Sequence record: CP132210.1
Length of the DNA stretch: 64,000 nt
Strand: one strand, 5' to 3'
Origin: a plasmid
The notes beneath the pieces were generated by a model. It searched no databases, was not told the origin of the DNA, and saw only the letters and a list, made by a program, of their open reading frames with translations. Positions 3,953 through 63,849 of the stretch are shown in pieces. Both the position numbers and the translations under genes were made by a program. Every line of letters begins with the position of its first letter. Position 1 is the stretch's first letter.

Positions 3953-4561
3953 ATGAAAACGATAAAGCGGTTCATCGTGTGGGTGAATTATGGCCTTGAG
4001 GGGTGGAGCATTTTCGGATCGAGTGATGACTGGGATGAGGCGTTATCTATCCGTTCGGAAGCGATCGACGAATGCAATATTGATGAGGATGACATCATCT
4101 TGGCGGAAAACAAAAACGAGCTGGTGGTGAAGCCAGCGGCCAAGCAAATGACGGAATGGCACCGGGAGCTGGAAGCCGTCCTAATGACCTTGGATGACTG
4201 CCAGATGGAATGTGACGGGATGACATGGGCAGTTAGTCACCTACTCAATGAAGCCGGTGTCCCGCATAACTGCATGTATGGCTTTGTACGAAACGAACAG
4301 ACCAAGGACATCGTGACACCGCATTTCTGGGTTGTCCTGGATGATGGGTGGTTGGTGGATCTGAGGCTGCGCATGTGGCTTGGCGATCACAACAACATTC
4401 CTCACGGGGTATTCCATCCCGATAACGAGCCTGGATTCTTCTACAAGGGGGATCCGGTTCAAAACCATAAAGGGATGAGACTGGGCAAGGCGGTCCTGGA
4501 CATTATGACCGAAGGAAAACTTTCACATGTGAAAGTTCCTGAACGACAAGACGGAGAGTGA
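3953..4561 (+). CDS. Hypothetical protein (202 aa, acidic N-terminus); first gene of a 6-7 gene same-strand cluster
   Basis: RBS AAGGGAG 6 nt before the ATG. No recognisable motifs. The 3' end contains a copy of the dispersed palindrome. Confidence 0.55.
   Translation: MKTIKRFIVWVNYGLEGWSIFGSSDDWDEALSIRSEAIDECNIDEDDIILAENKNELVVKPAAKQMTEWHRELEAVLMTLDDCQMECDGMTWAVSHLLNEAGVPHNCMYGFVRNEQTKDIVTPHFWVVLDDGWLVDLRLRMWLGDHNNIPHGVFHPDNEPGFFYKGDPVQNHKGMRLGKAVLDIMTEGKLSHVKVPERQDGE
4518..4537. promoter_or_regulatory. Dispersed palindrome copy 1 (AACTTTCACATGTGAAAGTT), intragenic
   Basis: Perfect 20-bp palindrome, one of 7 copies in the window. It encodes LSHVKV in the host ORF. Confidence 0.6.
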
Positions 4562-4565
4562 CAGC

Positions 4566-5087
4566 GTGGAACTGGATTACGACAAGTTAGTATCAAACAC
4601 ACATCTGGAGGCTGCTGGCTGGGGTATGGATGCCTTCAACCACTCCAACCCATTTGAGAGCCATGTCATCTATGTACGTGACTATCGTAACGATCACATC
4701 CGCCTGTTCACTATCAAGCAGGCTGATTTCGACACGATAAAGCAGCCACCCCACCTTACCTCCGACATGCTGGCCTCAGTGATTGCTGAGTTCATCTCAA
4801 AGGCAGCAAAAGGGACGTTGAATACGAAGGAGTCAAATACGCTGGCCCCCGCCTTGGTTGGTTATGCCAAATCAACAGAAACCTACCGGAGCTGGCGGAG
4901 AATGTCAGAGGTAGGAGAGCGACTGCATATGGTCATCAACATTTACGCCGGTTCTGGGCTGTTGAGGCCTTTCATTGCTCGTGCTCAGGAGACTGTACTG
5001 ACTACCCAAGAGGTGTTGGTCTTCTCATCGCAGGTTAAAGACCTGGATGTATCCAATCATCCTGAGTGGTTTAGGGGCCGGAGGTAG
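4566..5087 (+). CDS. Hypothetical protein (173 aa)
   Basis: GTG start with GGAGAG RBS. Tightly spaced after the upstream gene. Confidence 0.45.
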   Translation: MELDYDKLVSNTHLEAAGWGMDAFNHSNPFESHVIYVRDYRNDHIRLFTIKQADFDTIKQPPHLTSDMLASVIAEFISKAAKGTLNTKESNTLAPALVGYAKSTETYRSWRRMSEVGERLHMVINIYAGSGLLRPFIARAQETVLTTQEVLVFSSQVKDLDVSNHPEWFRGRR

Positions 5088-5089
5088 TC

Positions 5090-5611
5090 ATGAAGGCTGT
5101 TCTCTGGATATTCGTCTTGATCATCGCCCCTTTCGTCATTGCGAAAGTGGACCAGTGGCGCAAACGCGGCATTGGTGACACCTGGGCGTGGTGGAAATCA
5201 GAGAACATGCCTTATGAGCTGCGCTCGGCAACGCTGTTTTTGTCCGAACAGGACGTATCGACCACCCTGCCTGTGCCCATGCACGGCAGGGTTGACCAGG
5301 TGTATCAAACCAAAGGTGGGGTTCTCATCCCCCTGGACACAAAGCTGCGCCAAGCAAACCACATCTTTGAGTCGGACATTATCCAGCTCTCGGTTTACCG
5401 GGTAATTCTGTCACACAAGTACAAGGCTCCCGTTGCCAAGTACGGCTATGTCCGAACCGTTGTTGAAACAGCGGACGGGGATAGAGTCCGTTACATCAAG
5501 ACAAACCTTCTCAGTGAAAGAGAAGTGATCAAGCTGTGGCACCGCTACCAATCCATCCGCTATCGCAAGGTAAAACCTACCTGTTCCTGTGGCGGAAAGT
5601 TTCACATGTGA
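5090..5611 (+). CDS. Membrane-anchored NERD-like / PD-(D/E)xK nuclease-fold protein
   Basis: N-terminal TM helix. HGRVDQVYQTKGGVLIPLDTK fits the NERD/PD-(D/E)xK pattern (G-x-V-D ... hhhhh-D/E-x-K). C-terminal CSCGG. RBS GGAGG. Confidence 0.5.
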   Translation: MKAVLWIFVLIIAPFVIAKVDQWRKRGIGDTWAWWKSENMPYELRSATLFLSEQDVSTTLPVPMHGRVDQVYQTKGGVLIPLDTKLRQANHIFESDIIQLSVYRVILSHKYKAPVAKYGYVRTVVETADGDRVRYIKTNLLSEREVIKLWHRYQSIRYRKVKPTCSCGGKFHM

Positions 5612-5613
5612 AA
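5600..5613. promoter_or_regulatory. Dispersed palindrome copy 2 (TTTCACATGTGAAA core, 14-bp perfect), at the stop codon of the 5090 gene
   Basis: Same core as the other six copies. The flanks are imperfect. Confidence 0.5.
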
Positions 5614-5632
5614 GCTCTGGGTTGAATTAGGG

Positions 5633-5649
5633 TTGCCCGAATTGGGCAG
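5633..5649. promoter_or_regulatory. Activator-box-like inverted repeat copy 1 (TTGCCCGAATTGGGCAG)
   Basis: Member of the 7-copy TGCCCAAAATGGGCA family. It lies about 75 bp upstream of the 5708 start codon. Confidence 0.5.
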
Positions 5650-5707
5650 TTCGGCGGGGTTGCATTTTTGAGGAGTCCTGTAGGCTGGTTGCTATAGGAG
5701 GTGAATA

Positions 5708-6181
5708 GTGGCCCAGCTTAAACATAACCGCTTCGTCATGTTGGGTGCCTTGGTAGCGACTGTTGTAGCTGCCGCCAATGGTTTGAGTTTTATCACCCTT
5801 ATGGCTGGTGGAATAACCCTTCTCCAGTTCGTGGCATGGAAGCAACAAGATGCGATCCGGAGCCGGTTTAAAGCCGCGAAGGATGCGTTTGAAGCGTTGA
5901 ATGTCATAGCGTTTGACAAGCACTGGGTAGGCTCAACCGCGAAGGTCGCCAAGGTGTCGAGCACGAGCACCCCTCCCGAACGACTGGATAAGCCTTGGGC
6001 GGTGCAAGTTCTGGCCGTAACCAGTGGTGGGGCGTGGTTCGCAGTGGACCTGCAAGTGACCTGCACCGACAAGGTTCAGATGCTTTACCTCCACCGCCTT
6101 AGTGAAAAGACAGCAAAGACAATGCTGGCCTTCGATCTCGAAGTGTATGAGCGATTTTTCGGAAAACCTGATGTTGCATGA
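5708..6181 (+). CDS. Hypothetical membrane protein (157 aa)
   Basis: GTG start with AGGAGGTG RBS. N-terminal hydrophobic segment. Confidence 0.45.
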   Translation: MAQLKHNRFVMLGALVATVVAAANGLSFITLMAGGITLLQFVAWKQQDAIRSRFKAAKDAFEALNVIAFDKHWVGSTAKVAKVSSTSTPPERLDKPWAVQVLAVTSGGAWFAVDLQVTCTDKVQMLYLHRLSEKTAKTMLAFDLEVYERFFGKPDVA

Positions 6182-6192
6182 GGACAATGTGA

Positions 6193-6485
6193 TGGAAAAA
6201 GTCAAAAACGTAGATGCCGTTGAATTCACGGCAGCAGATAAGAAGGCGATGACCCATGCGGCTTACGCCCAGTGCTTCTTTGTTCTGGCCCAAGCAATAG
6301 CGTTTCCTTCCTTGGGGATGGCTGGCGCTATGGTTGCAGCTATGTGCGGCATGATGCCGTGGTTGACCAAGTTTGCCAAAGAGGCCCCCTCGAAAGCCTT
6401 TGGCATGGTGATGGCCTCGCTCGGCTTGGCACCTGTGTACGGAAAGCTCTGTGAGCTGGTGGTCAGTGCGATTCAGGGAGCTTGA
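6193..6485 (+). CDS. Small hydrophobic protein (about 97 aa)
   Basis: ATG at 6193. The product is Ala/Met-rich and hydrophobic. The start is uncertain. Confidence 0.35.
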
Positions 6486-7344
6486 GTTTATGGGGGTAGT
6501 ACGAGTTCCCTACCTCTTGGCTGAGCTGAAAGAACGCGGATGTGCTGATGAATCTGCTCTGGCGAAGGTTATGCAGCCAGGATGCCGGATTGAAGGGGAA
6601 GATCTGCGAAAGTTGGCCGCCAAGTTAGGGGTTGAAGTGTCCGAACTGGCACCTGCACCAGAGAACGAGGCCAATACCCGGTTCAAAGCAAAACTGAGAG
6701 GAGGTTTGGCCTCCTTTCTTTTTGAGTACGACGGCTGTTTCCGACATGCCGAAGGCTCCAGTCATGCAGAAATGTTGGGGATCGAGCAAGAAGACGATAT
6801 TGGCCTTCCGAGTAGAGCTGCGGACGCCATGCTCCTGGAGAAGACGCTTTATCAAGTAATCGCTCGGGCTAAGTACATGCTTGGCAAAATCGACGGCAAG
6901 TTTGTCAGGTCAGAACAGGCAATCGAGTTCCGTGAGCAGCTTGCTCCTGGGATCTTCAAGCCAGGTTATAGAGGCTTCCGATTTAAGGAGGCTGCTGCTG
7001 GTGATCTGCCTACTGTCATGATTGACGGTAGGAAGTTCAATTGCATTGCCAGCATAGCCAGAGCACATGGACTTGATCCGGTAACGGTGCGTAGGCGCAT
7101 TGCGGACACCGGGAAGGACGCAGACAAACTCACCAATGATGAGTGGAAACTCATCCTCGCCAAGAAGAAAGGTAAAGGGAAGCCCTTCACCTATCTGGAC
7201 AGGACCTACAGCAACATTGCTCAGTTCTGTCGTGAGCATCAGCTCAACACCAACCTTGTTTACCAGAAAGTCAAAGACCGGGCTGATAGCGCTGATGAAG
7301 AGTTCTGGGGACTGATAATCGAAACATGCAAAAGGAAAATCTAA
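6451..7344 (+). CDS. Hypothetical protein with C-terminal HTH-like segment (start uncertain: 6451 or 6490)
   Basis: Long ORF. GRKFNCIASIARAHGLDPVTVRRRI resembles an HTH. The stop abuts the sppA RBS. Confidence 0.45.
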   Translation: MSWWSVRFRELEFMGVVRVPYLLAELKERGCADESALAKVMQPGCRIEGEDLRKLAAKLGVEVSELAPAPENEANTRFKAKLRGGLASFLFEYDGCFRHAEGSSHAEMLGIEQEDDIGLPSRAADAMLLEKTLYQVIARAKYMLGKIDGKFVRSEQAIEFREQLAPGIFKPGYRGFRFKEAAAGDLPTVMIDGRKFNCIASIARAHGLDPVTVRRRIADTGKDADKLTNDEWKLILAKKKGKGKPFTYLDRTYSNIAQFCREHQLNTNLVYQKVKDRADSADEEFWGLIIETCKRKI

Positions 7345-8303
7345 TGGCAGAAAGCAAAGAGCTCCCCTGGGAGAGAGAGCTTATTGAGAAGTACATGTTC
7401 ACCCTGCATAAGGAGCAGGTGAAAGATCGCCGCTGGCGGGCTCTGTTGCGTGTGCTTCGCGCATCAGGTTTCGTGCTTCTCATGATCGGCTTCATCATCT
7501 TAGCGTCTAATCCGGGCGGGATGCCGTGGCAAAGCACCAAAGCAGGAGCCCCTCACACCGCGTATATCAACATCCGTGGTGAAATTGCTGCCGGTACACT
7601 GGCAGATGCTGATCACCTTATCCCGTCTATCCAAGCCGCATTCGACAACCCGAACTCCCAAGCCGTTGTACTTCGCATAAACAGCCCTGGCGGTAGCCCC
7701 GTTCAAGCTGGGCGGATTTATGAAGAAGTTAAAGCGCTGCGAGCGCTTCACCCAGAAAAAAAGGTCTACGCCATCATTGATGACATCGGTGCGTCTGGCG
7801 GCTACTACATCGCCTCTGCTGCGGACGAGATCTATGCTGACCGCGCAAGTCTGGTCGGCTCTATCGGCGTCATCAGCTCAGGGTTCGGATTCACTGGCCT
7901 GATGGACAAGCTCGGCATCGAGCGCCGGGCGATCACTTCCGGAGAGCACAAAGCTCTTCTCGATCCATTCTCCCCTCTTACCTCTGACATGAAGACATTT
8001 TGGGAGGGCGTTCTATCAAAAACCCACCAGCAGTTCATCGAGCGAGTGAAGGCTGGTCGAGGTGATCGACTGAAAGGCGACCAAGAGGTGTTTTCTGGGT
8101 TGCTTTGGAATGGGGAGCAGGCCAAAGACATTGGGTTGATTGATGGCTTGGGGAGTTTGAACTCCGTGGCGCGAGACGTCATCCACCAGAGCAACCTAGT
8201 GGACTACACCCCAACCGAAGACATCATCCGGCGACTGACCCAACGAGCGAAGCTCGAAGCCAGTTCCTTCGTGCAAGAACTCAGTGCTGTGAAAGTTTAC
8301 TGA
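7345..8303 (+). CDS. sppA: Signal peptide peptidase SppA (S49 family, short 36K-type)
   Basis: S49 protease core (INSPGGSP..., GASGGYYIA..., SLVGSIGV) after an N-terminal TM segment. AAGGAA RBS 7 nt upstream of the ATG at 7345. Confidence 0.8.
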
Positions 8304-8318
8304 TAGGAGAAGTTTGAC

Positions 8319-9179
8319 ATGCCAGAACAAAATACCAAATCGCTACGCCTCGGGGTTATTGCCGCCATTATTTTGGGACTCGCAGGAACCGGGTTCGGCA
8401 TTTACCAGTTCGTGAAAGAGAAGGAGCTGGCGCAAGAGATCGCTAACGTGAAGTCCACGGTCAACCAGGTGAAGGGCACCGAAGGTGTCACTTTCAAAAG
8501 CAAAGCAGAGTTTGAAGCTGCGGTGGCCGAAAGCATCAACAAGTTTGTCGCGCAGAAACAACAAGCCGACATCGATCAGAAGTATGCCAAGTTTGAGGCA
8601 GCTCCTGAGAAGGTCGATGACGGTAAACACATCTACGGGGCCCCTGGTGCTAGGTTCACACTGGTGGAGTTCTCCGATATGGAATGTCCGTTCTGCAAGC
8701 AATTCCACGACACACCCAAGCAAATTGTTGATGCCAGCAAAGGGAATGTGAATTGGCAGTGGAAGCATATGCCTCTCGATTTCCATAATCCGACAGCTCA
8801 CAGAGAAGCATTGGCCGCTGAGTGTATTGCTGAGCAGAAAGGCAACCGAGGCTTCTGGGTCTTCGTGAATGACATTTTCCATCACAGCCAAGGTAACGGT
8901 GCTGGGGTTGCTGACTTGGCCTCTGTTGTTACTGGTGTTGGCGCTGATCTGGATGAGTTCCGGGACTGCCTCGGTTCTGGCAAGCATGAAGACAAGGTTG
9001 AGGCTGACATCCAGAAGGCCAAGAGCTATGGCGTTAACGGGACTCCGGCCACATTTGTAGTGGACAACCAAACCGGCAAGAGTCAGCTCCTCGGCGGCGC
9101 TCAACCGGCACAAGCCATCATGGCTGTGATGCGAAAAATGATGATTGAGTCGCAGCCAGACGACTCAGCAAGCCAATAA
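8319..9179 (+). CDS. Membrane-anchored DsbA-like thiol:disulfide oxidoreductase
   Basis: N-terminal TM helix, coiled segment, then a thioredoxin fold with CPFC active site. Confidence 0.7.
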   Translation: MPEQNTKSLRLGVIAAIILGLAGTGFGIYQFVKEKELAQEIANVKSTVNQVKGTEGVTFKSKAEFEAAVAESINKFVAQKQQADIDQKYAKFEAAPEKVDDGKHIYGAPGARFTLVEFSDMECPFCKQFHDTPKQIVDASKGNVNWQWKHMPLDFHNPTAHREALAAECIAEQKGNRGFWVFVNDIFHHSQGNGAGVADLASVVTGVGADLDEFRDCLGSGKHEDKVEADIQKAKSYGVNGTPATFVVDNQTGKSQLLGGAQPAQAIMAVMRKMMIESQPDDSASQ

Positions 9180-57746: not shown

Positions 57747-58397
57747 TTATGCGGCTTTCTCGTCATCAGTTTTTGCAGCTTCGGCTGCGAGTTCGTTGTC
57801 GCCGGTTACAGATTCCGGGGCGGCCTGGGCTACTTCCCCTTCTTTGCCCTTGGTGTGGGCGGAAATGCGGGCTCGTTTCTCGATGCCGATGATGCGACCG
57901 GCCAGTTTAATAAGACGTTGCTGCCATTGATACGTGGCGTCGGTGCGCTGTTTGCTGGTCAGTACAGTGTTCAACCAGAGGGTATCAACGATCCCCATCA
58001 GGGTATCCAGCTTGCGGATCAGGTGTGCAAACTGGGCAACTTGGGGAGAGTTGATCTCGATGGTGTATTCGGTCGGGTTGGTGTAGCCGGGCATCATGTC
58101 GATGCCGTTGTCTTCCATCAGCTTGTTGAGCTGGGCGGTAGCTTTGTCCAAGTCTTCGGAAACCTTGGCGATGTGCTCCAGGATGACGGTTTCAACCTGG
58201 TCAATTTCGTCCTGCTCACCGATGATCCGAAGAATAACGTCGATGGAAAACAGGGAGTTGGATACTCGCTCAAAGCTGCGTTCCATGACGCGCTGGGCCT
58301 GGAGGCTGTTTACTTTCAGAGCTTGTTTGAAAACAGGGCGAGAGTAGTGGTTGTTGCGGTCGCTGCTTGTGCCTACTGCTGCTTGTGCTTCTGCCAT
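57747..58397 (-). CDS. Hypothetical antiparallel-helical protein (216 aa) between traN and the recombination module; candidate regulator
   Basis: Predicted all-helical with an acidic C-terminal tail. Its position corresponds to where IncC plasmids encode an accessory regulator (AcaB), but no motif confirms this. Confidence 0.45.
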   Translation of the reverse strand: MAEAQAAVGTSSDRNNHYSRPVFKQALKVNSLQAQRVMERSFERVSNSLFSIDVILRIIGEQDEIDQVETVILEHIAKVSEDLDKATAQLNKLMEDNGIDMMPGYTNPTEYTIEINSPQVAQFAHLIRKLDTLMGIVDTLWLNTVLTSKQRTDATYQWQQRLIKLAGRIIGIEKRARISAHTKGKEGEVAQAAPESVTGDNELAAEAAKTDDEKAA

Positions 58398-58477
58398 TAG
58401 AGATACTCCTAAGTTGAGGTACAGATAAACGCACAGAAAGGATAAATGCGGTCAATCTGTAACCTGACATCCCGAAG

Positions 58478-58493
58478 TGCCCAAAATGGACAG
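58478..58493. promoter_or_regulatory. Activator-box-like inverted repeat copy 7 (TGCCCAAAATGGACAG)
   Basis: In the divergent region, 80 bp from the start of the 57747 gene and about 200 bp from the 58689 gene. Confidence 0.45.
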
Positions 58494-58564
58494 TTACAGC
58501 GTTTTATGTTTAGTCAAGGTGAGCTATATTTAAGCCATCTTAGTCGCTCTGCGGCTATAAGTGA

Positions 58565-58688
58565 GATAGCTGGTCTCCGAAAACAAACAGCATCTAGTCT
58601 TATGCCGTATGGCATTTCTTAACCCCAAACCGGGGGCTTCTCCCGGTTTTTCGGGTGTTGCCCCTGCTTTAACTATAGGAGCAACACC
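58565..58688 (+). promoter_or_regulatory. Leader module U1: conserved GATAGCTGGTCTCCGAAAACAAACAGCA box, small palindrome, terminator-like hairpin, RBS-sequestering hairpin
   Basis: AAACCGGGggcttctCCCGGTTTTT hairpin. GGTGTTGC...GGAGCAACACC pairs across the RBS, ending 1 nt before the ATG. Confidence 0.5.
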
Positions 58689-59009
58689 ATGCACATCATC
58701 ACTTTCATTGTAGTTCTGCTTGCATCTCTGGGCGCATTGTACGTGGGCGCGAAGGCATTTGCTTATTCCTTCATCGTTCTCGCTAAAGTGTTCCAGCGTA
58801 TCGGTTTGTTCCTTTGGAACAAATTTGCAGTTCCTGCAATGCGGTCTGTGCAGGCCGTCATCAAAGAACGCGCTGCTAAGGCTAAACAAGCCAAAGCAGT
58901 CGTTGGGCCTGAGGTAACTCAAGCTCAAGAAGTCGCTAAACAAGAACCTGATTGGGATTATCTCGAAATTCCGACTTACCTGCGTAAAGGAAAGGACCTT
59001 GTTTGGTAA
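58689..59009 (+). CDS. Membrane protein carrying an FtsZ C-terminal-peptide mimic
   Basis: N-terminal TM helix or helices (MHIITFIVVLLASLGALYVGAKAFAYSFIVLAKVF), a Lys/Ala-rich linker, and C-terminal ...KQEPDWDYLEIPTYLRKGKDLVW. Compare the E. coli FtsZ tail KEPDYLDIPAFLRKQAD. Confidence 0.55.
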   Translation: MHIITFIVVLLASLGALYVGAKAFAYSFIVLAKVFQRIGLFLWNKFAVPAMRSVQAVIKERAAKAKQAKAVVGPEVTQAQEVAKQEPDWDYLEIPTYLRKGKDLVW

Positions 59010-59040: not shown

Positions 59041-59103
59041 AAACCCATCGGGGCAATCATTCCCCGATGGGGATGTTGCCCCTTTTTAATTGGGAGCAAC
59101 ATC
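59041..59103 (+). promoter_or_regulatory. Leader module (short form): palindromic hairpin plus RBS-sequestering hairpin
   Basis: CCCATCGGGGcaatcattCCCCGATGGGG is a perfect 10-bp-arm hairpin. GATGTTGC...GGAGCAACATC pairs across the RBS. Confidence 0.5.
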
Positions 59104-59205
59104 ATGGAGATCATGGAGCTCGCTATCATCGTTTTGTGCATCCCTACAGGTTGGGCAATCTCTCGTCCTTTCGTGAGAATTGCTGAATCGTTCGGCTGCT
59201 GCTGA
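59104..59205 (+). CDS. Small hydrophobic peptide (33 aa)
   Basis: MEIMELAIIVLCIPTGWAISRPFVRIAESFGCC. Sits directly behind a leader module with the same RBS geometry as the neighbouring genes. Confidence 0.3.
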   Translation: MEIMELAIIVLCIPTGWAISRPFVRIAESFGCC

Positions 59206-59583: not shown

Positions 59584-59724
59584 GATTTTGTCCTCTCTGA
59601 GGGCGAAAACGTGCGATAGCTGGTCGCCAAAAACAAACAGCAAATTAACGTTAATTTTACTAGCCCAACCGGGCGCATCCGCCCGGTTCGGGACGTGGTG
59701 CGCCTGTCAAAATAGGAGCGCACC
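59584..59724 (+). promoter_or_regulatory. Leader module U2 (95-bp core 59584..59678 repeated at 63906..64000), hairpin and RBS-sequestering hairpin
   Basis: Contains the GATAGCTGGTCGCCAAAAACAAACAGCA box, CCGGGCGcatccGCCCGG hairpin, and GGTGCGCC...GGAGCGCACC pairing across the RBS. Confidence 0.55.
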
Positions 59725-60694
59725 TATGTCTCAATACTCTCAATTTTCAGTAAGCAAGGTTTTCGGTATGCCAAGCATTCCGGAGAAGGTAACTGCCATC
59801 GGCTACGCTGACGGTTCAAACCCCTTCATCCCTGCCACTGATACAAACTACGTTTTCCGCAAAGAGTTTCTGCGAGAGGTCTTGGCCTATCTCAAAGAGC
59901 CTGGCGGTGACGCATTGTTCGTAACCGGACCTACCGGGTCCGGTAAAACCTCAGGTATCACCGAGATCGCTGGTCGTCTTAACTGGCCTGTTCAGCAAAT
60001 CACTGCCCACGGGCGGATGGAACTGACAGATCTGATTGGACATCATGCTCTGGTCGCGGAAAAACCGGGTCAACCGCCTGTCATGAAGTTCATGTATGGA
60101 CCTCTGGCAGTCGCTATGCGTGAAGGCCATCTTCTCCTCATCAACGAGGTTGATTTGGCTGACCCTGCCGAGCTGGCTGGTCTCAACGATGTTCTTGAAG
60201 GACGTCCTCTTGTGATCGCTCAGAATGGTGGGGAAATCATCAAGCCACACCCGATGTTTCGTGTGGTCGTTACTGGTAACTCTACGGGGTCCGGTGATGC
60301 TTCTGGTTTGTACCAGGGGGTGATGATGCAGAACCTCGCTGCTATGGATCGCTATCGTTTTACCAAAGTAGGGTATGCGGATGAGGAAGCTGAACTCAGC
60401 ATTCTTGGCCGTGTTACTCCGAAACTTCCGGAAAATGTGCGGAAGGGGATGGTTCGGATTGCTAATCAGGTCCGCAAACTGTTTCTTGGTGAAAACGGAG
60501 AAGATGGTCAGCTCAGCATCACCATGTCCACCCGGACGTTGGTACGTTGGGCAAAACTGTCTCTTGCGTTCCGTGGTGCCCCCAACGCCCTTGAATACGC
60601 TCTGGATCAAGCTCTGCTTATCCGGGCGGCCAAAGAGGAGCGTGAAGCCATCCTGCGTGTTGCGAAGGATGTGTTTGGGGATCAGTGGCGCTAA
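59725..60694 (+). CDS. CobS-like MoxR-family AAA+ ATPase
   Basis: Walker A GPTGSGKTS. Walker B LLLINEVD. Sensor TGN. 323 aa, typical of the phage/plasmid CobS-like family. Confidence 0.75.
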
Positions 60695-60705
60695 GGGGGG
60701 GACGC

Positions 60706-61611
60706 ATGAAGAAAAATGACTGTTTGTGCCGTCGTTACACATTCACGGATGCGTCAACGTCGGAAACATTCGAGGTATTTATTGGCTACAAAGTTCTCCG
60801 AGAACCCAGCCCCTCGGGGCCAGGCCAATTCACGATGGTGAAGCTAAACCGAACCGTCACGGATGGAAAAGCTGAAAACTGGTCTGAGACAAAGCTCGAA
60901 GTACCATTTGAAGCAAACGGCCCGGACACGATCCCAATGTCCTACAAGGACAAAGAAAGCCAGTATGTGTCACAGTTTCTCAGCCAGGGGTACACCTTTC
61001 TGGATGAGGTGCTGGTAAACGCAGAGACACAGACTGTGCTAGAAGGGGGGGGTGTTTCAGCCGGACAAGCAGCCAGCTTGGGGTCTATCAACTGGCTGTT
61101 ATCTCCGCCTTCTGAGTTACCTCCAGGTGACATAAACCTCTTCAAAGGTTTTGTTACTGGGGTTTTTGCCAAAGGAGCCAGTTTAATCGGCTTTGAGGTT
61201 GCTCGGAACGAAAGCTCAAACGACTTGCTACCCAGTGTGCTGATGCGTACTGACAGCGGTTATGAGCTTGGGGTTAGCACTGGGCTAGGCGAGAACACTA
61301 TCCATCCAGCCACGCTGGAAGGCGCTGGTGAACTCCGCCCGGAACATGGTCACAAACCCCTGCTGATGCTGATTTACCTGCAACAACGTTTCGCGGATGA
61401 CTTTTCAAACGTAGAGAAGCCGCTGGTGGCATTCTGTGATGAACAGGGTGATACCTTCGACTACGAGCGTTTTGATTCACTAAAACCCCTCATTGAACGG
61501 TTTGGTTTCAGCTATGACGAAGTAAGAGCAGATGCAGAAAGGCTTGGCCTTGTATCTGAGCTGATTCGCCTAGCAGAGATCGACGCCGAACAAGAGGATC
61601 TCTTTTTTTAA
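60706..61611 (+). CDS. Hypothetical partner protein downstream of the CobS-like ATPase (302 aa)
   Basis: No VWA/MIDAS motif recognised. Start at MKKND. Confidence 0.45.
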   Translation: MKKNDCLCRRYTFTDASTSETFEVFIGYKVLREPSPSGPGQFTMVKLNRTVTDGKAENWSETKLEVPFEANGPDTIPMSYKDKESQYVSQFLSQGYTFLDEVLVNAETQTVLEGGGVSAGQAASLGSINWLLSPPSELPPGDINLFKGFVTGVFAKGASLIGFEVARNESSNDLLPSVLMRTDSGYELGVSTGLGENTIHPATLEGAGELRPEHGHKPLLMLIYLQQRFADDFSNVEKPLVAFCDEQGDTFDYERFDSLKPLIERFGFSYDEVRADAERLGLVSELIRLAEIDAEQEDLFF

Positions 61612-61699
61612 CCCTTGCGGGGCTTACTCCCCAACATGGGCTTGGCCCTCTCCAAGTAATTTGGAAGTCAATTTGGTTGGCGGGTAACTCCGCCAACTC

Positions 61700-61780
61700 T
61701 TACTAAACCCCACGGGGGCACCAATGCCCCGATGGGGAATGGTGTCCTCTAAACGTTCATTCGTGAATTGGAGAAACACC
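61700..61780 (+). promoter_or_regulatory. Leader module upstream of bet (two hairpins)
   Basis: CCCCACGGGGgcaccaatgCCCCGATGGGG hairpin. TGGTGTCCTC...GAGAAACACCA imperfect pairing across the RBS. Confidence 0.45.
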
Positions 61781-62776
61781 ATGTCAACTGATAGCAAATC
61801 CCTTATAACCCGCATTGCCTCTCGGTACGGTGTTGATAGCACCAAGTTTTTTGAAACCTTGAAAGCAACTGCGTTTAAGCAACGTGATGGCTCCGCTCCA
61901 ACCAACGACCAAATGATGGTTCTTCTGGTTGTGGCAGAGCAATACAACCTTAATCCGTTTACTCGGGAGATCTATGCGTTTCCTGATAGACAAAACGGGA
62001 TCATCCCGGTAGTGGGTGTTGACGGTTGGAGCCGCATCATCAACGAGCATCCCCAGCATGATGGTGTCGAGTTCGTGTATGCGGACAAGATGGTCAGAAT
62101 GGAGGGAGCAAACGTTGATTGCCCTGAGTGGATAGAATGCGTGATTTACCGTAAGGACAGATCACGCCCTATCCGGATCAAGGAGTTCATTGACGAAGTT
62201 TACCGAGGGCCAGCGCATAAAAATGGGCAAAACGGCCCTTATGTTGTCAATGGCCCTTGGCAAACACACACCAAGCGTCAACTCCGGCACAAGTCACTGA
62301 TCCAGTGTTCTCGTGTCGCGTTCGGTTTCAGTGGTATTTACGACCAAGATGAAGCAGAACGTATCCGTGAAATGGAGCAGGCATCAGCCATTAACCCGGC
62401 CATTGCAAGCCTCCCTTCACCGGCACAAGTTCATAGCCAGGAGCCTTTGGCTATTGAGCACAAAGAGCTTGACCCGATCCTAATCAAACTCGCAAATCGC
62501 GCTATTGCTGAAAACGCATGGTCTGCGGCGCATGAGTATTTGAAGGGACGGTATGAGGGTTCGGAACTGCAATATGCGACTCAATTCCTTCGTGAGAAGG
62601 AGATGGATCAAATGGAGCCTCCGAAACCTGACTACCAGGAAGCGCACGAGCAAGCCTCCACTGCTGGTGGTTCTGCGAATGCCGAACCTGTTGCCGCCGA
62701 AGTCGTGCCACCTTTGAGTGACGAGGACATGCTCCTTGTTGCAGAAGAGGAGGGTGCGCAAGGCTGTTATTACTAA
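61781..62776 (+). CDS. bet: RecT/Red-beta family single-strand annealing protein Bet
   Basis: RecT-family core (...LNPFTREIYAFPDRQNGIIPVVGVDGW...). C-terminal acidic tail. Confidence 0.8.
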   Translation: MSTDSKSLITRIASRYGVDSTKFFETLKATAFKQRDGSAPTNDQMMVLLVVAEQYNLNPFTREIYAFPDRQNGIIPVVGVDGWSRIINEHPQHDGVEFVYADKMVRMEGANVDCPEWIECVIYRKDRSRPIRIKEFIDEVYRGPAHKNGQNGPYVVNGPWQTHTKRQLRHKSLIQCSRVAFGFSGIYDQDEAERIREMEQASAINPAIASLPSPAQVHSQEPLAIEHKELDPILIKLANRAIAENAWSAAHEYLKGRYEGSELQYATQFLREKEMDQMEPPKPDYQEAHEQASTAGGSANAEPVAAEVVPPLSDEDMLLVAEEEGAQGCYY

Positions 62777-62838
62777 CCCCAACGGGGGGGACTCCCCCGC
62801 AGGGGGAGGTCTCCCTCCTAACCACTGGAGAGAGGTCC
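62777..62838 (+). promoter_or_regulatory. Leader module upstream of exo
   Basis: CCCCAACGGGGGGGACTCCCCCGCAGGGGG G/C hairpin, then a partially self-complementary segment over the RBS. Confidence 0.4.
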
Positions 62839-63849
62839 ATGAAAATAGTCAACCTATCGCAACGCGAGGAAGATTGGCTTGCTTGGCGGCGTCAAGGTGT
62901 AACAGCCACTGACGCCGCTATCCTGCTCAATCGGTCTCCGTACAAAACCCGATGGAGGTTGTGGGCCGAGAAGACTGGGTATGCGCGTGAAGTCGATCTG
63001 AGTCTCAATCCGCTGGTTCGCCGGGGGATAGAAAACGAAGATGCTGCAAGACGCGCTTTCGAGGAGAAGTATGATGACATGCTGCTCCCCGTCTGTGTCG
63101 AATCGGTTCAATACCCGCTCATGAGGGCCTCCCTGGACGGCCTGAGAGACAACGGGGAACCCGTCGAGCTGAAAAGCCCGAGTGCGACTGTTTGGGAAGA
63201 TGTTTGTGCAGAGAAAGCAAACAGCAAGGCATATCAGCTTTATTACCCGCAGGTGCAACACCAGCTCCTGGTAACGGGTGCCAAGCAAGGCTGGCTAGTC
63301 TTCTACTTTGAAGGTCAGATTCAGGAGTATCCAATACTCCGAGACGAAGCCATGATTCAAGAAATCTTGGCCGAAGCTAAAAAGTTCTGGCAACAGGTAG
63401 TAGACAGGAAGGAGCCCGACAAAGATCCGGAAAGAGACCTCTACATACCGCAAGGTGAAGAGGTCAATCGCTGGATTGCTGCTGCTGAGGAATACCGCCT
63501 CTATGATGCAGAGATTCAGGAGCTGAAACAGCGACTGGCTGAGCTTCAAGAAAGGCAAAAACCTCATCTCGACACAATGAAGTTCCTCATGGGGGAATAC
63601 TTCCATGCCGACTATTGCGGTGTGATGGTGACGAGATACAAAGCGGCTGGCCGGGTAGACTACAAAAGGCTGTTGGCAGATAAGGCGTCGGGCGTGAAGC
63701 CTGAGGATGTTGACCAATACAGAGAGAAGTCATCAGAGCGGTGCCGCGTAACGGTTACTGGTTCGGTGAAGCCACGGTACATTGTTGATGAGGACGTATT
63801 GGCTCCTCTTGATGATTTGCCGGAAGAAGTAGAGACATTCTACTGGTGA
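62839..63849 (+). CDS. exo: YqaJ/lambda-Exo-family 5'-3' exonuclease
   Basis: WLAWRRQGVTATDAAILL...SLDG..ELKSP motif set of the YqaJ viral recombinase exonuclease family. 336 aa. Confidence 0.8.
   Translation: MKIVNLSQREEDWLAWRRQGVTATDAAILLNRSPYKTRWRLWAEKTGYAREVDLSLNPLVRRGIENEDAARRAFEEKYDDMLLPVCVESVQYPLMRASLDGLRDNGEPVELKSPSATVWEDVCAEKANSKAYQLYYPQVQHQLLVTGAKQGWLVFYFEGQIQEYPILRDEAMIQEILAEAKKFWQQVVDRKEPDKDPERDLYIPQGEEVNRWIAAAEEYRLYDAEIQELKQRLAELQERQKPHLDTMKFLMGEYFHADYCGVMVTRYKAAGRVDYKRLLADKASGVKPEDVDQYREKSSERCRVTVTGSVKPRYIVDEDVLAPLDDLPEEVETFYW

Follow-up and report, generated by a model that had tools for sequence, protein, structure and literature searches.

The question raised by this locus is whether a plasmid protein has copied the peptide through which the cell division protein FtsZ docks to its partners. 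The window, which is the whole stretch of 64,000 nucleotides (nt) of plasmid DNA from sequence record CP132210.1 that was analysed, contains near its end an open reading frame (ORF) for a protein of 106 amino acids (aa). On the basis of its neighbours, acaB and sfx, and of its identity to plasmid records, this ORF is the IncA orthologue of vcrx087 of the IncC plasmid pVCR94. An earlier note had reported the ORF and its sequence, with which the present analysis agrees exactly, and had seen a mimic of the FtsZ tail in its C-terminus. Functional mimicry is plausible from the sequence comparisons presented here, and the vcrx087-like protein may be a membrane-tethered decoy or ligand for the receptors of the FtsZ tail, a reading to which a probability of about 0.4 is assigned. 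On sequence statistics alone, the resemblance is real and shared function is unproven.

The C-terminal sequence of the protein is QEPDWDYLEIPTYLRKGKDLVW, with the tail DYLEIPTYLRKGKDLVW, and that of E. coli K-12 FtsZ (from NC_000913.3) is ...AKEPDYLDIPAFLRKQAD. Residues 90-103 of the plasmid protein (DYLEIPTYLRKGKD) align without gaps to FtsZ residues 370-383 (DYLDIPAFLRKQAD), with 9 of 14 positions identical and 3 conservative differences. The match spans the entire peptide that is bound by ZipA, from D370 to D383, and equivalents of I374, P375, F377 (as Tyr), L378, R379 and K380 are retained. When the ORF was compared with full-length FtsZ by BLASTP, the sole meaningful alignment joined ORF residues 78-103 to FtsZ residues 361-383, at the extreme C-terminus (14/26 identities, 25.8 bits, pairwise E 2e-4). 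The 11-residue core, DYLEIPTYLRK against DYLDIPAFLRK, has an ungapped BLOSUM62 score of 47, the runner-up in the window scoring 26. The exact null distribution gives a P of approximately 1e-10 per position for this score, with approximately 5e-6 expected over the six-frame segments of the window; this P value is valid for one peptide fixed in advance and not for a database-wide search. The motif [DE][IV]Px[FY][LI][RK], as defined for FtsZ in PMC9939409 and PMC4117426, has one six-frame occurrence in the window, the EIPTYLR of this ORF, which stops 7 residues before the stop codon. A phmmer search with the 25-aa FtsZ tail against the 1187 six-frame segments of the window likewise returned this ORF alone (E 0.007; next 3.9). 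By these measures chance does not explain the match within the window, and the similarity to FtsZ C-termini that had been proposed is real.

Wider searches with tail sequences were also made. The 40-aa FtsZ tail returned only FtsZ fragments from a large protein search, which is therefore useless for finding mimics. In the host FtsZ, EPDYLDIPAFLRKQAD is invariant across the Enterobacterales and their relatives, and the FtsZ linker drifts. A tblastn search of the FtsZ tail against plasmids and phages, too insensitive to detect even the present ORF, found only genuine ftsZ in mislabelled chromosomes, and a phmmer search of the 39-aa tail of the window protein against the PDB sequences gave no match. 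The FtsZ tail of Thermotoga maritima, which may read DIPAIYRYGLEGLL and so have an R-x-G and a hydrophobic end in common with this family, was not found in the papers or in the PDB and was left out of the evidence.

The gene has an ATG start with AGGAG 8 nt 5' of it and a double TAA stop. Hydropathy and AlphaFold2 both bear out the layout that was originally described, in which a membrane anchor is followed by a flexible linker and a C-terminal peptide. With the family alignment, AlphaFold2 predicts a single confident helix at residues 2-46 (predicted local distance difference test, pLDDT, 88-97), in which residues 23-46 run on from the predicted transmembrane (TM) helix; this second segment is enlarged or duplicated in distant relatives. 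The pLDDT drops below 50 at residues 51-56 and 69-84; directly after the Pro a short helix, predicted at low confidence, covers residues 96-104. There are no Lys or Arg residues before residue 22 and ten between residues 22 and 69, a charge distribution which, by the positive-inside rule, would place the linker in the cytoplasm, where the C-terminal tail should also be. As the linker is variable and predicted to be disordered, the tail would be displayed as a free peptide. A second conserved motif lies ahead of the linker and is kept in most members of the family, with R52 nearly invariant and A56, V57 and I58 conserved. No domain or family match was found in Pfam, NCBIfam or PHROGs for the protein, its tail or two distant relatives. 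A tubulin-type GTPase domain is absent from the 106 aa, with no Pfam or NCBIfam match and a BLASTP alignment confined to 26 residues of the protein's end. The protein is not, judging from its sequence, an FtsZ homologue, since it lacks the GTPase domain.

The biology of the FtsZ tail is compatible with a decoy. Six partners are described for it, ZipA, FtsA, MinC, SlmA, ZapD and ClpX (PMC4117426; for ClpX also PMC3983244). The 14-mer DYLDIPAFLRKQAD alone binds ZipA at 20 uM, FtsA at 50 uM and SlmA-SBS at 81 uM, and it competes with FtsZ for SlmA (PMC4117426). I374, F377 and L378 are critical for ZipA, FtsA, MinC and SlmA, and both I374K and L378E abolish SlmA binding (PMC4117426). FtsZ carrying D373E, I374V, A376P, L378V or K380M is resistant to MinC-MinD and keeps ZipA and FtsA function (PMC4117426). 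The conserved peptide has been described as a "grappling hook" of 8 residues with invariant D, P and F, which follows a disordered linker (PMC9939409). In vivo, free FtsZ C-terminal fragments 354-383 inhibit growth (PMC11831152). As isolated FtsZ tails bind ZipA, FtsA and SlmA and inhibit growth in vivo, a decoy is physically reasonable. By analogy with the FtsZ variants, a tail that keeps the I, L, R and K, with Y for F377, should be compatible with ZipA, FtsA and perhaps SlmA.

The vcrx087 family is small and confined to A/C-like plasmids and Pseudomonas megaplasmids. An exhaustive hidden Markov model search of 1.84 billion representatives identified only 16 clusters, to which a further profile search added the Pseudomonas clade and others. 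All full-length members share one plan, with one or more N-terminal hydrophobic helices, a linker of variable length and a conserved tail. The family tail has the consensus W-x-x-[YFL]-[DE]-[IV]-P-[TA]-[YF]-[LI]-R-[KR]-G and, with its rarer variants and its end, can be written W-x-x-[YFL]-[DE]-[IV, sometimes E/Q/T/K]-P-[TAS]-[YF]-[LI]-R-[KRQ]-G-x-x-[LI]-[VA]-[W/other hydrophobic]. Within it P95, R99 and G101 are invariant, W89, [YFL]92, [DE]93, [YF]97, [LI]98 and [LI]104 are conserved, and the hydrophobic nature of the C-terminal tripeptide is conserved as well. Averaged over all pairs in the family, identity falls from 62% in the core and 51% in the tail to 33% in the membrane part and 16% in the linker, and even among relatives as distant as about 20-35% identity no segment is better conserved than the tail. 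Between IncA and IncC there are 5 synonymous and 0 non-synonymous differences in codons 88-101, the non-synonymous changes clustering in the linker (codons 66, 73 and 79). The tail peptide is under purifying selection. The protein itself evolves much faster than its neighbours: relative P0029 is 26-27% identical and has a neighbouring ATPase that is 77% identical to that of IncC, and relative P0017 is 35% identical with an AcaB that is 72% identical.

At the position equivalent to I374 there is Ile in the window protein, and I or V in all of the IncA, IncC, Vibrio and Aeromonas-type members. The hosts of the family are Gammaproteobacteria whose FtsZ ends in the same peptide. Tails of the enterobacterial, Vibrio and Aeromonas members read -LRKG, against -FLRKQAD in the host FtsZ; Pseudomonas FtsZ ends DYLDIPAFLRRQAD (-FLRRQAD), and the tail of the Pseudomonas plasmid clade reads -LRRG. 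This K/R co-variation of plasmid tail and host FtsZ is suggestive, being a single clade contrast. The Pseudomonas megaplasmid clade (L018, P0060, P0062-P0065 and P0067) consists of 121-aa proteins with the tail WDHYEKPTYLRRGLLISV, in which there is Lys at the FtsZ I374 position and RR as in Pseudomonas FtsZ.

FtsZ tails are not limited to this family. DNA-pattern scans of the IMG/VR viral contigs for sequences coding for FtsZ tails identified a 26-nt pattern 16 times, where an estimated <1 would be expected by chance. Among the proteins so found are several that have no tubulin signature, are unrelated to the vcrx087 family and end in exact FtsZ tails. A soluble phage protein of 72 aa on metagenomic contig L049 ends ...EYLDIPAFLRRQLA, an exact FtsZ-type tail. 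Its gene has a CI/LexA-like repressor on one side and RecT and a YqaJ fusion on the other (7727-8578, 5538-6527 and 3958-5541, all on the minus strand), and compared with the lambda pL operon it occupies the position of kil; tblastn of the protein against the INPHARED phages found no relative. A 67-aa phage ORF on L115, MLILKGKPGEIKQ...PPDDVPLDIPAFLRKQAD, ends ...PLDIPAFLRKQAD, its last 12 residues (LDIPAFLRKQAD) being identical to those of E. coli FtsZ, and has no Pfam match. The same contig has a reverse transcriptase beside two Lcl_C-domain genes, which are read as a diversity-generating retroelement, as well as a C5 DNA methylase and a MazG-like gene. Homologous small phage or prophage proteins with a coiled-coil-like N-terminus, on L063 and L074, have the tails ...LDIPAFLRRQGG and ...RRQSK and end ...GLDIPAFLRRQGG and ...HLDIPAFLRRQSK; the L074 gene is about 1.2 kb from a phage integrase gene. 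Phage methyltransferases of the MT-A70, ParB_N plus MT-A70, and N6_N4_Mtase types bear ...DDGLDIPAFLRR, in some cases after Pro-rich linkers and at a distance of 9-21 residues from the C-terminus, and in others internally or some 105 residues before the end.

Two groups of candidates from these scans were set aside. Most DIPAFL-type matches in viral contigs are out-of-frame artefacts, 27-codon Met-less frames in a conserved phage gene (...FDIPAFLSKA). This frame, ...CIFRYFDIPAFLSKA, is found in many phage contigs (L021-L048, L050-L060, L078 and others), is almost certainly the wrong frame of the conserved gene and is a trap for motif scans. A CsrA-like identity for the 67- and 72-aa proteins, considered for their MLI... 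starts, was dropped as it had no Pfam support.

The presence of exact tails on unrelated phage proteins makes the copying of FtsZ tails by mobile elements more credible, as it seems to recur. Compared with them, vcrx087 is a more diverged example. Copying of the docking peptide might be a recurrent, undescribed strategy of mobile elements, embracing plasmid membrane anchors, phage proteins in the kil position and methyltransferases of an anti-restriction type; this broader proposal is less likely than not. Were it correct, decoys or hitch-hikers would reach the hub by which the Z-ring is tethered and positioned (ZipA, FtsA, SlmA, MinC, ZapD and ClpX), and the establishment of the element would be coupled to host division.

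The genomic setting of the gene is that of a conserved plasmid backbone. Over the 901 nt around the ORF, IncA conjugative plasmids, among them pR210-2-VIM, match the window at 100% identity and >700 IncC plasmids at 90-95%. In these records the ORF is annotated as a hypothetical protein; the IncC version of the protein is 94-95% identical. By tblastn, 814 plasmid records carry the gene, of which 812 are conjugative, and 1444 carry the AAA ATPase family. Past acaB lies a lipoprotein gene, sfx (vcrx085), whose position between traN and acaB was published in 2024. Gene order in the window is that of the IncA and IncC records, so that the gene belongs to the hde operon, and it is co-oriented with the AAA (CbbQ-like), bet and exo block, as the earlier note had it; the identities of the downstream cistrons were taken from the annotation of the identical IncA record. 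Reverse transcription in IncC has shown that vcrx087, vcrx089 and bet are on one mRNA, probably starting at Pvcrx087 (PMC7498323). The hde operon shields the incoming plasmid, with vcrx089-090 countering type I restriction and ssb, bet and exo repairing CRISPR-Cas breaks (PMC7498323). In IncC, a near-canonical Pvcrx087 promoter is described, the divergent acaB-vcrx087 promoters being AcaCD-dependent and Pvcrx087 also constitutive, and vcrx087 is labelled a "gene of unknown function" (PMC8373056). A simple sigma-70 scan of the divergent promoter region found no site at the scan thresholds, and GTGCCCAAAATGGACAG in this region is a candidate AcaCD box.

The synteny of the A/C-like plasmids, traN-sfx-acaB followed by the gene, a small ORF, AAA_5/CbbQ_C, RecT and YqaJ, is also seen in distant relatives, and divergent AcaB-like genes adjoin distant family members too. 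In a Pseudomonas luteola megaplasmid the family member (...WDHYEKPTYLRRGLLISV) is directly upstream of the AAA ATPase. Contig L017, labelled as a Mycoavidus metagenome-assembled genome, has a family member ending ...LAFLEIPTYLRKGDEILF beside an acaB homologue (54% identity). Downstream there are a weak ArdA-like ORF, a Toprim/DUF7146 protein and an FlhC-like (AcaC-like) protein, with no ATPase, and upstream there is a 1259-aa WD40-repeat ORF.

The gene had also been described as lying behind one of a set of repeated leader modules, and there are indeed four paralogous modules in this region, which precede the vcrx087-like ORF, an unannotated 33-aa ORF, the AAA ATPase gene vcrx089 and bet (the last three ORFs starting at 59104, 59726 and 61781). 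Each consists of a GC-rich hairpin and then a second hairpin, in which the Shine-Dalgarno sequence is paired and which reaches as far as the start codon or just into it. The sequence of the stems differs between copies and the pairing is kept. For the vcrx087-like ORF the two-hairpin leader has a fold z of -3.9, and its terminator-like and Shine-Dalgarno-pairing hairpins fit tight control of a dose-sensitive product. A leader structure has been mentioned for vcrx089 only (PMC7498323). Two of the modules have a 32-nt direct repeat 5' of them. The 33-aa hydrophobic ORF is probably a real micro-protein; in IncC pSN254 its frame is kept across a 9-nt deletion and there are synonymous changes.

These observations suggest a model for the tethered decoy. 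The product would be a small bitopic inner-membrane protein with its N-terminal helix in the membrane and with a K/R-rich linker and C-terminus that are probably cytoplasmic. The C-terminal short linear motif, its sole strongly conserved soluble element, would copy the conserved C-terminal peptide (CCTP, or CTC) of FtsZ and fill the CCTP-docking pockets of membrane-proximal receptors, presumably ZipA and FtsA in the main and possibly SlmA. Tethering would concentrate the tail in the two-dimensional compartment of the receptors and thereby offset the weak, tens of micromolar, monovalent affinity of the CCTP, so that the tail could compete with FtsZ filaments for the membrane anchors. The likely outcome would be a transient delay or re-tuning of division during plasmid establishment or AcaCD-driven transfer; at low dose, the protein may instead merely be recruited to the divisome. 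Expression would be constitutive at a low level, and would rise when AcaCD is active or during the first expression of the operon in a new host. The gene would thus be a plasmid counterpart of the kil genes that stand beside the recombination genes of lambdoid phages, and its early position in the operon, as first cistron in company with bet and exo, may be counted in favour of mimicry.

Several observations weigh against such a decoy. A match this strong arises by chance at database scale, with an E near 1 in a whole-proteome search. When the family-tail profile was scanned across the PDB, the top match was a chance segment inside a folded chitinase (E 0.08), and three full-length gammaproteobacterial FtsZ chains, each aligned at the extreme C-terminus, reached just E 0.24-0.64. 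The W six residues before the Pro, the invariant G101 and the hydrophobic -LVW end are lacking in E. coli FtsZ. As W89, G101 and -LVW are not features of gammaproteobacterial FtsZ, they suggest a pocket that differs at least in part, and the description of the tail as a near-perfect mimic was too strong. E, Q, T or K is found at the I374-equivalent in P0017, P0019, P0020, P0026 and the whole Pseudomonas clade; such polar or charged residues count against docking at the FtsZ-tail receptors, since I374K loses SlmA and the other partners also depend critically on I374. MinC is improbable as a target, being poorly matched on the evidence of FtsZ variants, because the window protein has E at D373 and FtsZ-D373E resists MinC-MinD. 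It is not assured that the protein could titrate the thousand or so ZipA or FtsA molecules stoichiometrically, given the weak monovalent CCTP and a leader that sequesters the Shine-Dalgarno sequence and so implies low translation. Depletion in transposon-insertion sequencing (TnSeq) was confined to vcrx089-093 (PMC7498323), so vcrx087 was probably dispensable for transfer or for evasion of CRISPR and restriction under those conditions. No dedicated vcrx087 mutant was found in the literature search.

The features that depart from FtsZ would be accounted for if the tail docks a different partner, such as Vcrx089 (a MoxR/CbbQ-type AAA+ protein), Vcrx090, the downstream VWA/DUF3150 proteins or another host protein, and anchors it at the membrane, the likeness to FtsZ being convergent or incidental. 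CbbQ/MoxR-type AAA+ ATPases engage partners through adaptors, and the tight synteny with AAA_5/CbbQ_C in both A/C-like plasmids and Pseudomonas megaplasmids points the same way, as do the family invariants W89, G101 and -LVW, which are absent from FtsZ, and the variable I374-equivalent. The chance match of like strength to a folded chitinase also implies that such similarity is possible without function. However, at the sensitivity of tblastn the ATPase family is found in more plasmid records than the vcrx087-like protein (1444 against 814), a Providencia plasmid carries the ATPase behind an unrelated upstream gene, and the L017 member is beside acaB and then ArdA-like and Toprim genes with no ATPase. 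Nine consecutive consensus positions fit the FtsZ motif, at a P of about 1e-10 for the window protein. A different partner is on balance unlikely, if a serious contender.

The database-wide E-values are marginal, which, together with the lack of a domain or family match in Pfam, NCBIfam and PHROGs and the lack of a phenotype in published screens, would also suit a resemblance without function. The product would then be an unrelated small membrane protein, for example of the membrane-perturbing or exclusion type, with a C-terminus that folds back on the protein or the membrane. This is improbable in view of the disordered, variable linker, which presents the tail as a free peptide, of boundaries, C-terminal position and key residues that coincide exactly with a known docking peptide, and of the independent mobile-element proteins that bear exact FtsZ tails.

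It is also conceivable that the tail is mainly a turnover signal, either an FtsZ-like ClpX element or a non-polar C-terminal degron (-LVW) for ClpXP or FtsH, which would keep a potentially toxic small membrane protein short-lived or engage ClpXP, a driver of restriction alleviation as well. ClpXP degrades HsdR during restriction alleviation, the operon has an anti-restriction function, the six partners of the tail in FtsZ include ClpX, and the hydrophobic C-terminal tripeptide is conserved. The similarity, however, is in the DYLxIPxxLRK core rather than in FtsZ 379-383, the part implicated in ClpX recognition, and a degron needs fewer than the 12 or more positions that are conserved. Turnover as the main role is therefore very improbable.

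Features of the vcrx087-like locus in the 64,000-nt window (positions without a prefix) and of related or FtsZ-tail-bearing genes on other contigs (positions with the contig named).
Feature	Position	Strand	Details
vcrx087-like ORF	58689-59009	+	106 aa plus stop; IncA orthologue of vcrx087; hypothetical protein WP_012766334.1
Predicted TM helix, residues 3-21 (IITFIVVLLASLGALYVGA)	58695-58751	+	Kyte-Doolittle 19-residue mean 2.4; AlphaFold2 pLDDT 94-97
Weaker hydrophobic/amphipathic helix, residues 23-46	58755-58826	+	Kyte-Doolittle 1.3-1.5, with moderate hydrophobicity over residues 23-43; contains K33 and R37
Second conserved motif R-S-x-Q-A-V-I, residues 52-58	58842-58862	+	Family alignments
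Lys/Ala/Glu/Gln-rich variable linker, residues 59-87	58863-58949	+	Predicted disordered, pLDDT 40-52
Conserved C-terminal peptide DWDYLEIPTYLRKGKDLVW, residues 88-106	58950-59006	+	FtsZ alignment and family conservation
Leader hairpin 1	58627-58649	+	GC-rich stem-loop then U run, terminator- or attenuator-like; RNA fold; conserved in IncC
Leader hairpin 2	58654-58688	+	Ends at base before ATG; pairs Shine-Dalgarno AGGAG (58677-58681)
Four two-hairpin leader modules	58627-58688, 59044-59103, 59667-59730, 61708-61782	+	Fold z -3.9 to -5.8
Direct repeat, 32 nt	58561-58592 / 59611-59642		Copies 91% identical
33-aa hydrophobic ORF (MEIMELAIIVLCIPTGWAISRPFVRIAESFGCC)	59104-59205	+	Unannotated; own leader module
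acaB, transfer-gene activator	57747-58397	-	Divergent neighbour; PDB 6n8b AcaB, E 1.6e-124
Divergent acaB / vcrx087 promoter region	58398-58626		96% identical to IncC pSN254
Downstream operon cistrons	59726-63849	+	AAA_5/CbbQ_C ATPase vcrx089 59726-60694; vcrx090-like 60706-61611; bet 61781-62776; exo 62839-63849
Family member, contig labelled Mycoavidus	L017 4917-5297	+	
Family member, Pseudomonas megaplasmid clade	L018 3297-3662	+	
72-aa phage protein	L049 6912-7130	-	
67-aa phage ORF	L115 7365-7568	-	
Small phage/prophage protein	L063 1965-2171	-	
Small phage/prophage protein	L074 7228-7560	+	
Methyltransferase, 460-aa ORF	L062/L064 (L062 3750-5132)	+	
Further methyltransferase loci	L065, L069, L072, L073, L066, L070, L071, L075, L077, L067, L068		

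Among the main vehicles of carbapenemase and multidrug resistance genes are the IncA and IncC plasmids, whose conserved backbone includes the vcrx087-like gene. If the tail engages ZipA, FtsA or SlmA, the FtsZ docking peptide would have its first natural decoy, and the plasmid a new means of timing host division around entry or transfer. The tail would also provide a ready-made, evolution-optimised ligand for the ZipA/FtsA pocket that drug programmes have sought to target. The phage proteins with exact FtsZ tails indicate that the idea may generalise. Full-text literature searches, which covered few subscription journals, turned up no description of a plasmid or phage factor that mimics the FtsZ tail and no link between IncC or vcrx087 and FtsZ, in agreement with the earlier note, which knew of no plasmid factor of this kind.

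The closest comparison is with the FtsZ CCTP itself. Like it, the window tail stands at the C-terminus behind a linker that is disordered and little conserved, and it has an acidic residue, a Pro and an aromatic residue at the positions of the conserved D, P and F of FtsZ (PMC9939409). Its predicted weak helix begins after the Pro, as in ZipA-bound FtsZ. It differs in being joined to a membrane helix rather than to a tubulin-like GTPase, in having an invariant Gly for Q381, a hydrophobic end that is five residues longer (-KDLVW) and a conserved Trp upstream, and in that the I374-equivalent is not conserved over the wider family. Laboratory FtsZ fragments and synthetic tails are likewise detached from the polymerising core, whereas the window tail occurs in nature, has diverged, is tethered to the membrane and is subject to selection on a plasmid. 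The phage proteins with FtsZ tails share with the vcrx087 family that they are not tubulins and that the motif is at or near the C-terminus after a linker, and the operon of the 72-aa protein likewise holds RecT and YqaJ; the phage proteins, in contrast, are soluble, and their tails resemble FtsZ much more closely, down to the Q-x-x end.

Small division inhibitors of mobile elements are represented by lambda Kil, Rac KilR, DicB and T7 Gp0.4, which act on the FtsZ core or via MinC or ZipA and are not known to imitate the FtsZ tail. No significant PHROGs, Pfam or NCBIfam match places the window protein or two distant relatives in any of these families. As with lambda Kil, the vcrx087-like gene is small and early in a mobile-element operon beside Red-type bet and exo, and by analogy a transient division block would be the expected outcome for its product too; unlike the Kil-type inhibitors, the window protein is membrane-anchored. 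Modulation of division by a decoy of the FtsZ peptide, a mechanism not described for natural proteins, would thus be Kil-like in role. In its layout the protein resembles ZipA, a bitopic inner-membrane protein with an N-terminal anchor, a long flexible linker and a cytoplasmic C-terminal interaction module, to which it has no homology. The two are mirror images, in that ZipA has the receptor domain for the FtsZ tail where the window protein has a tail-like ligand.

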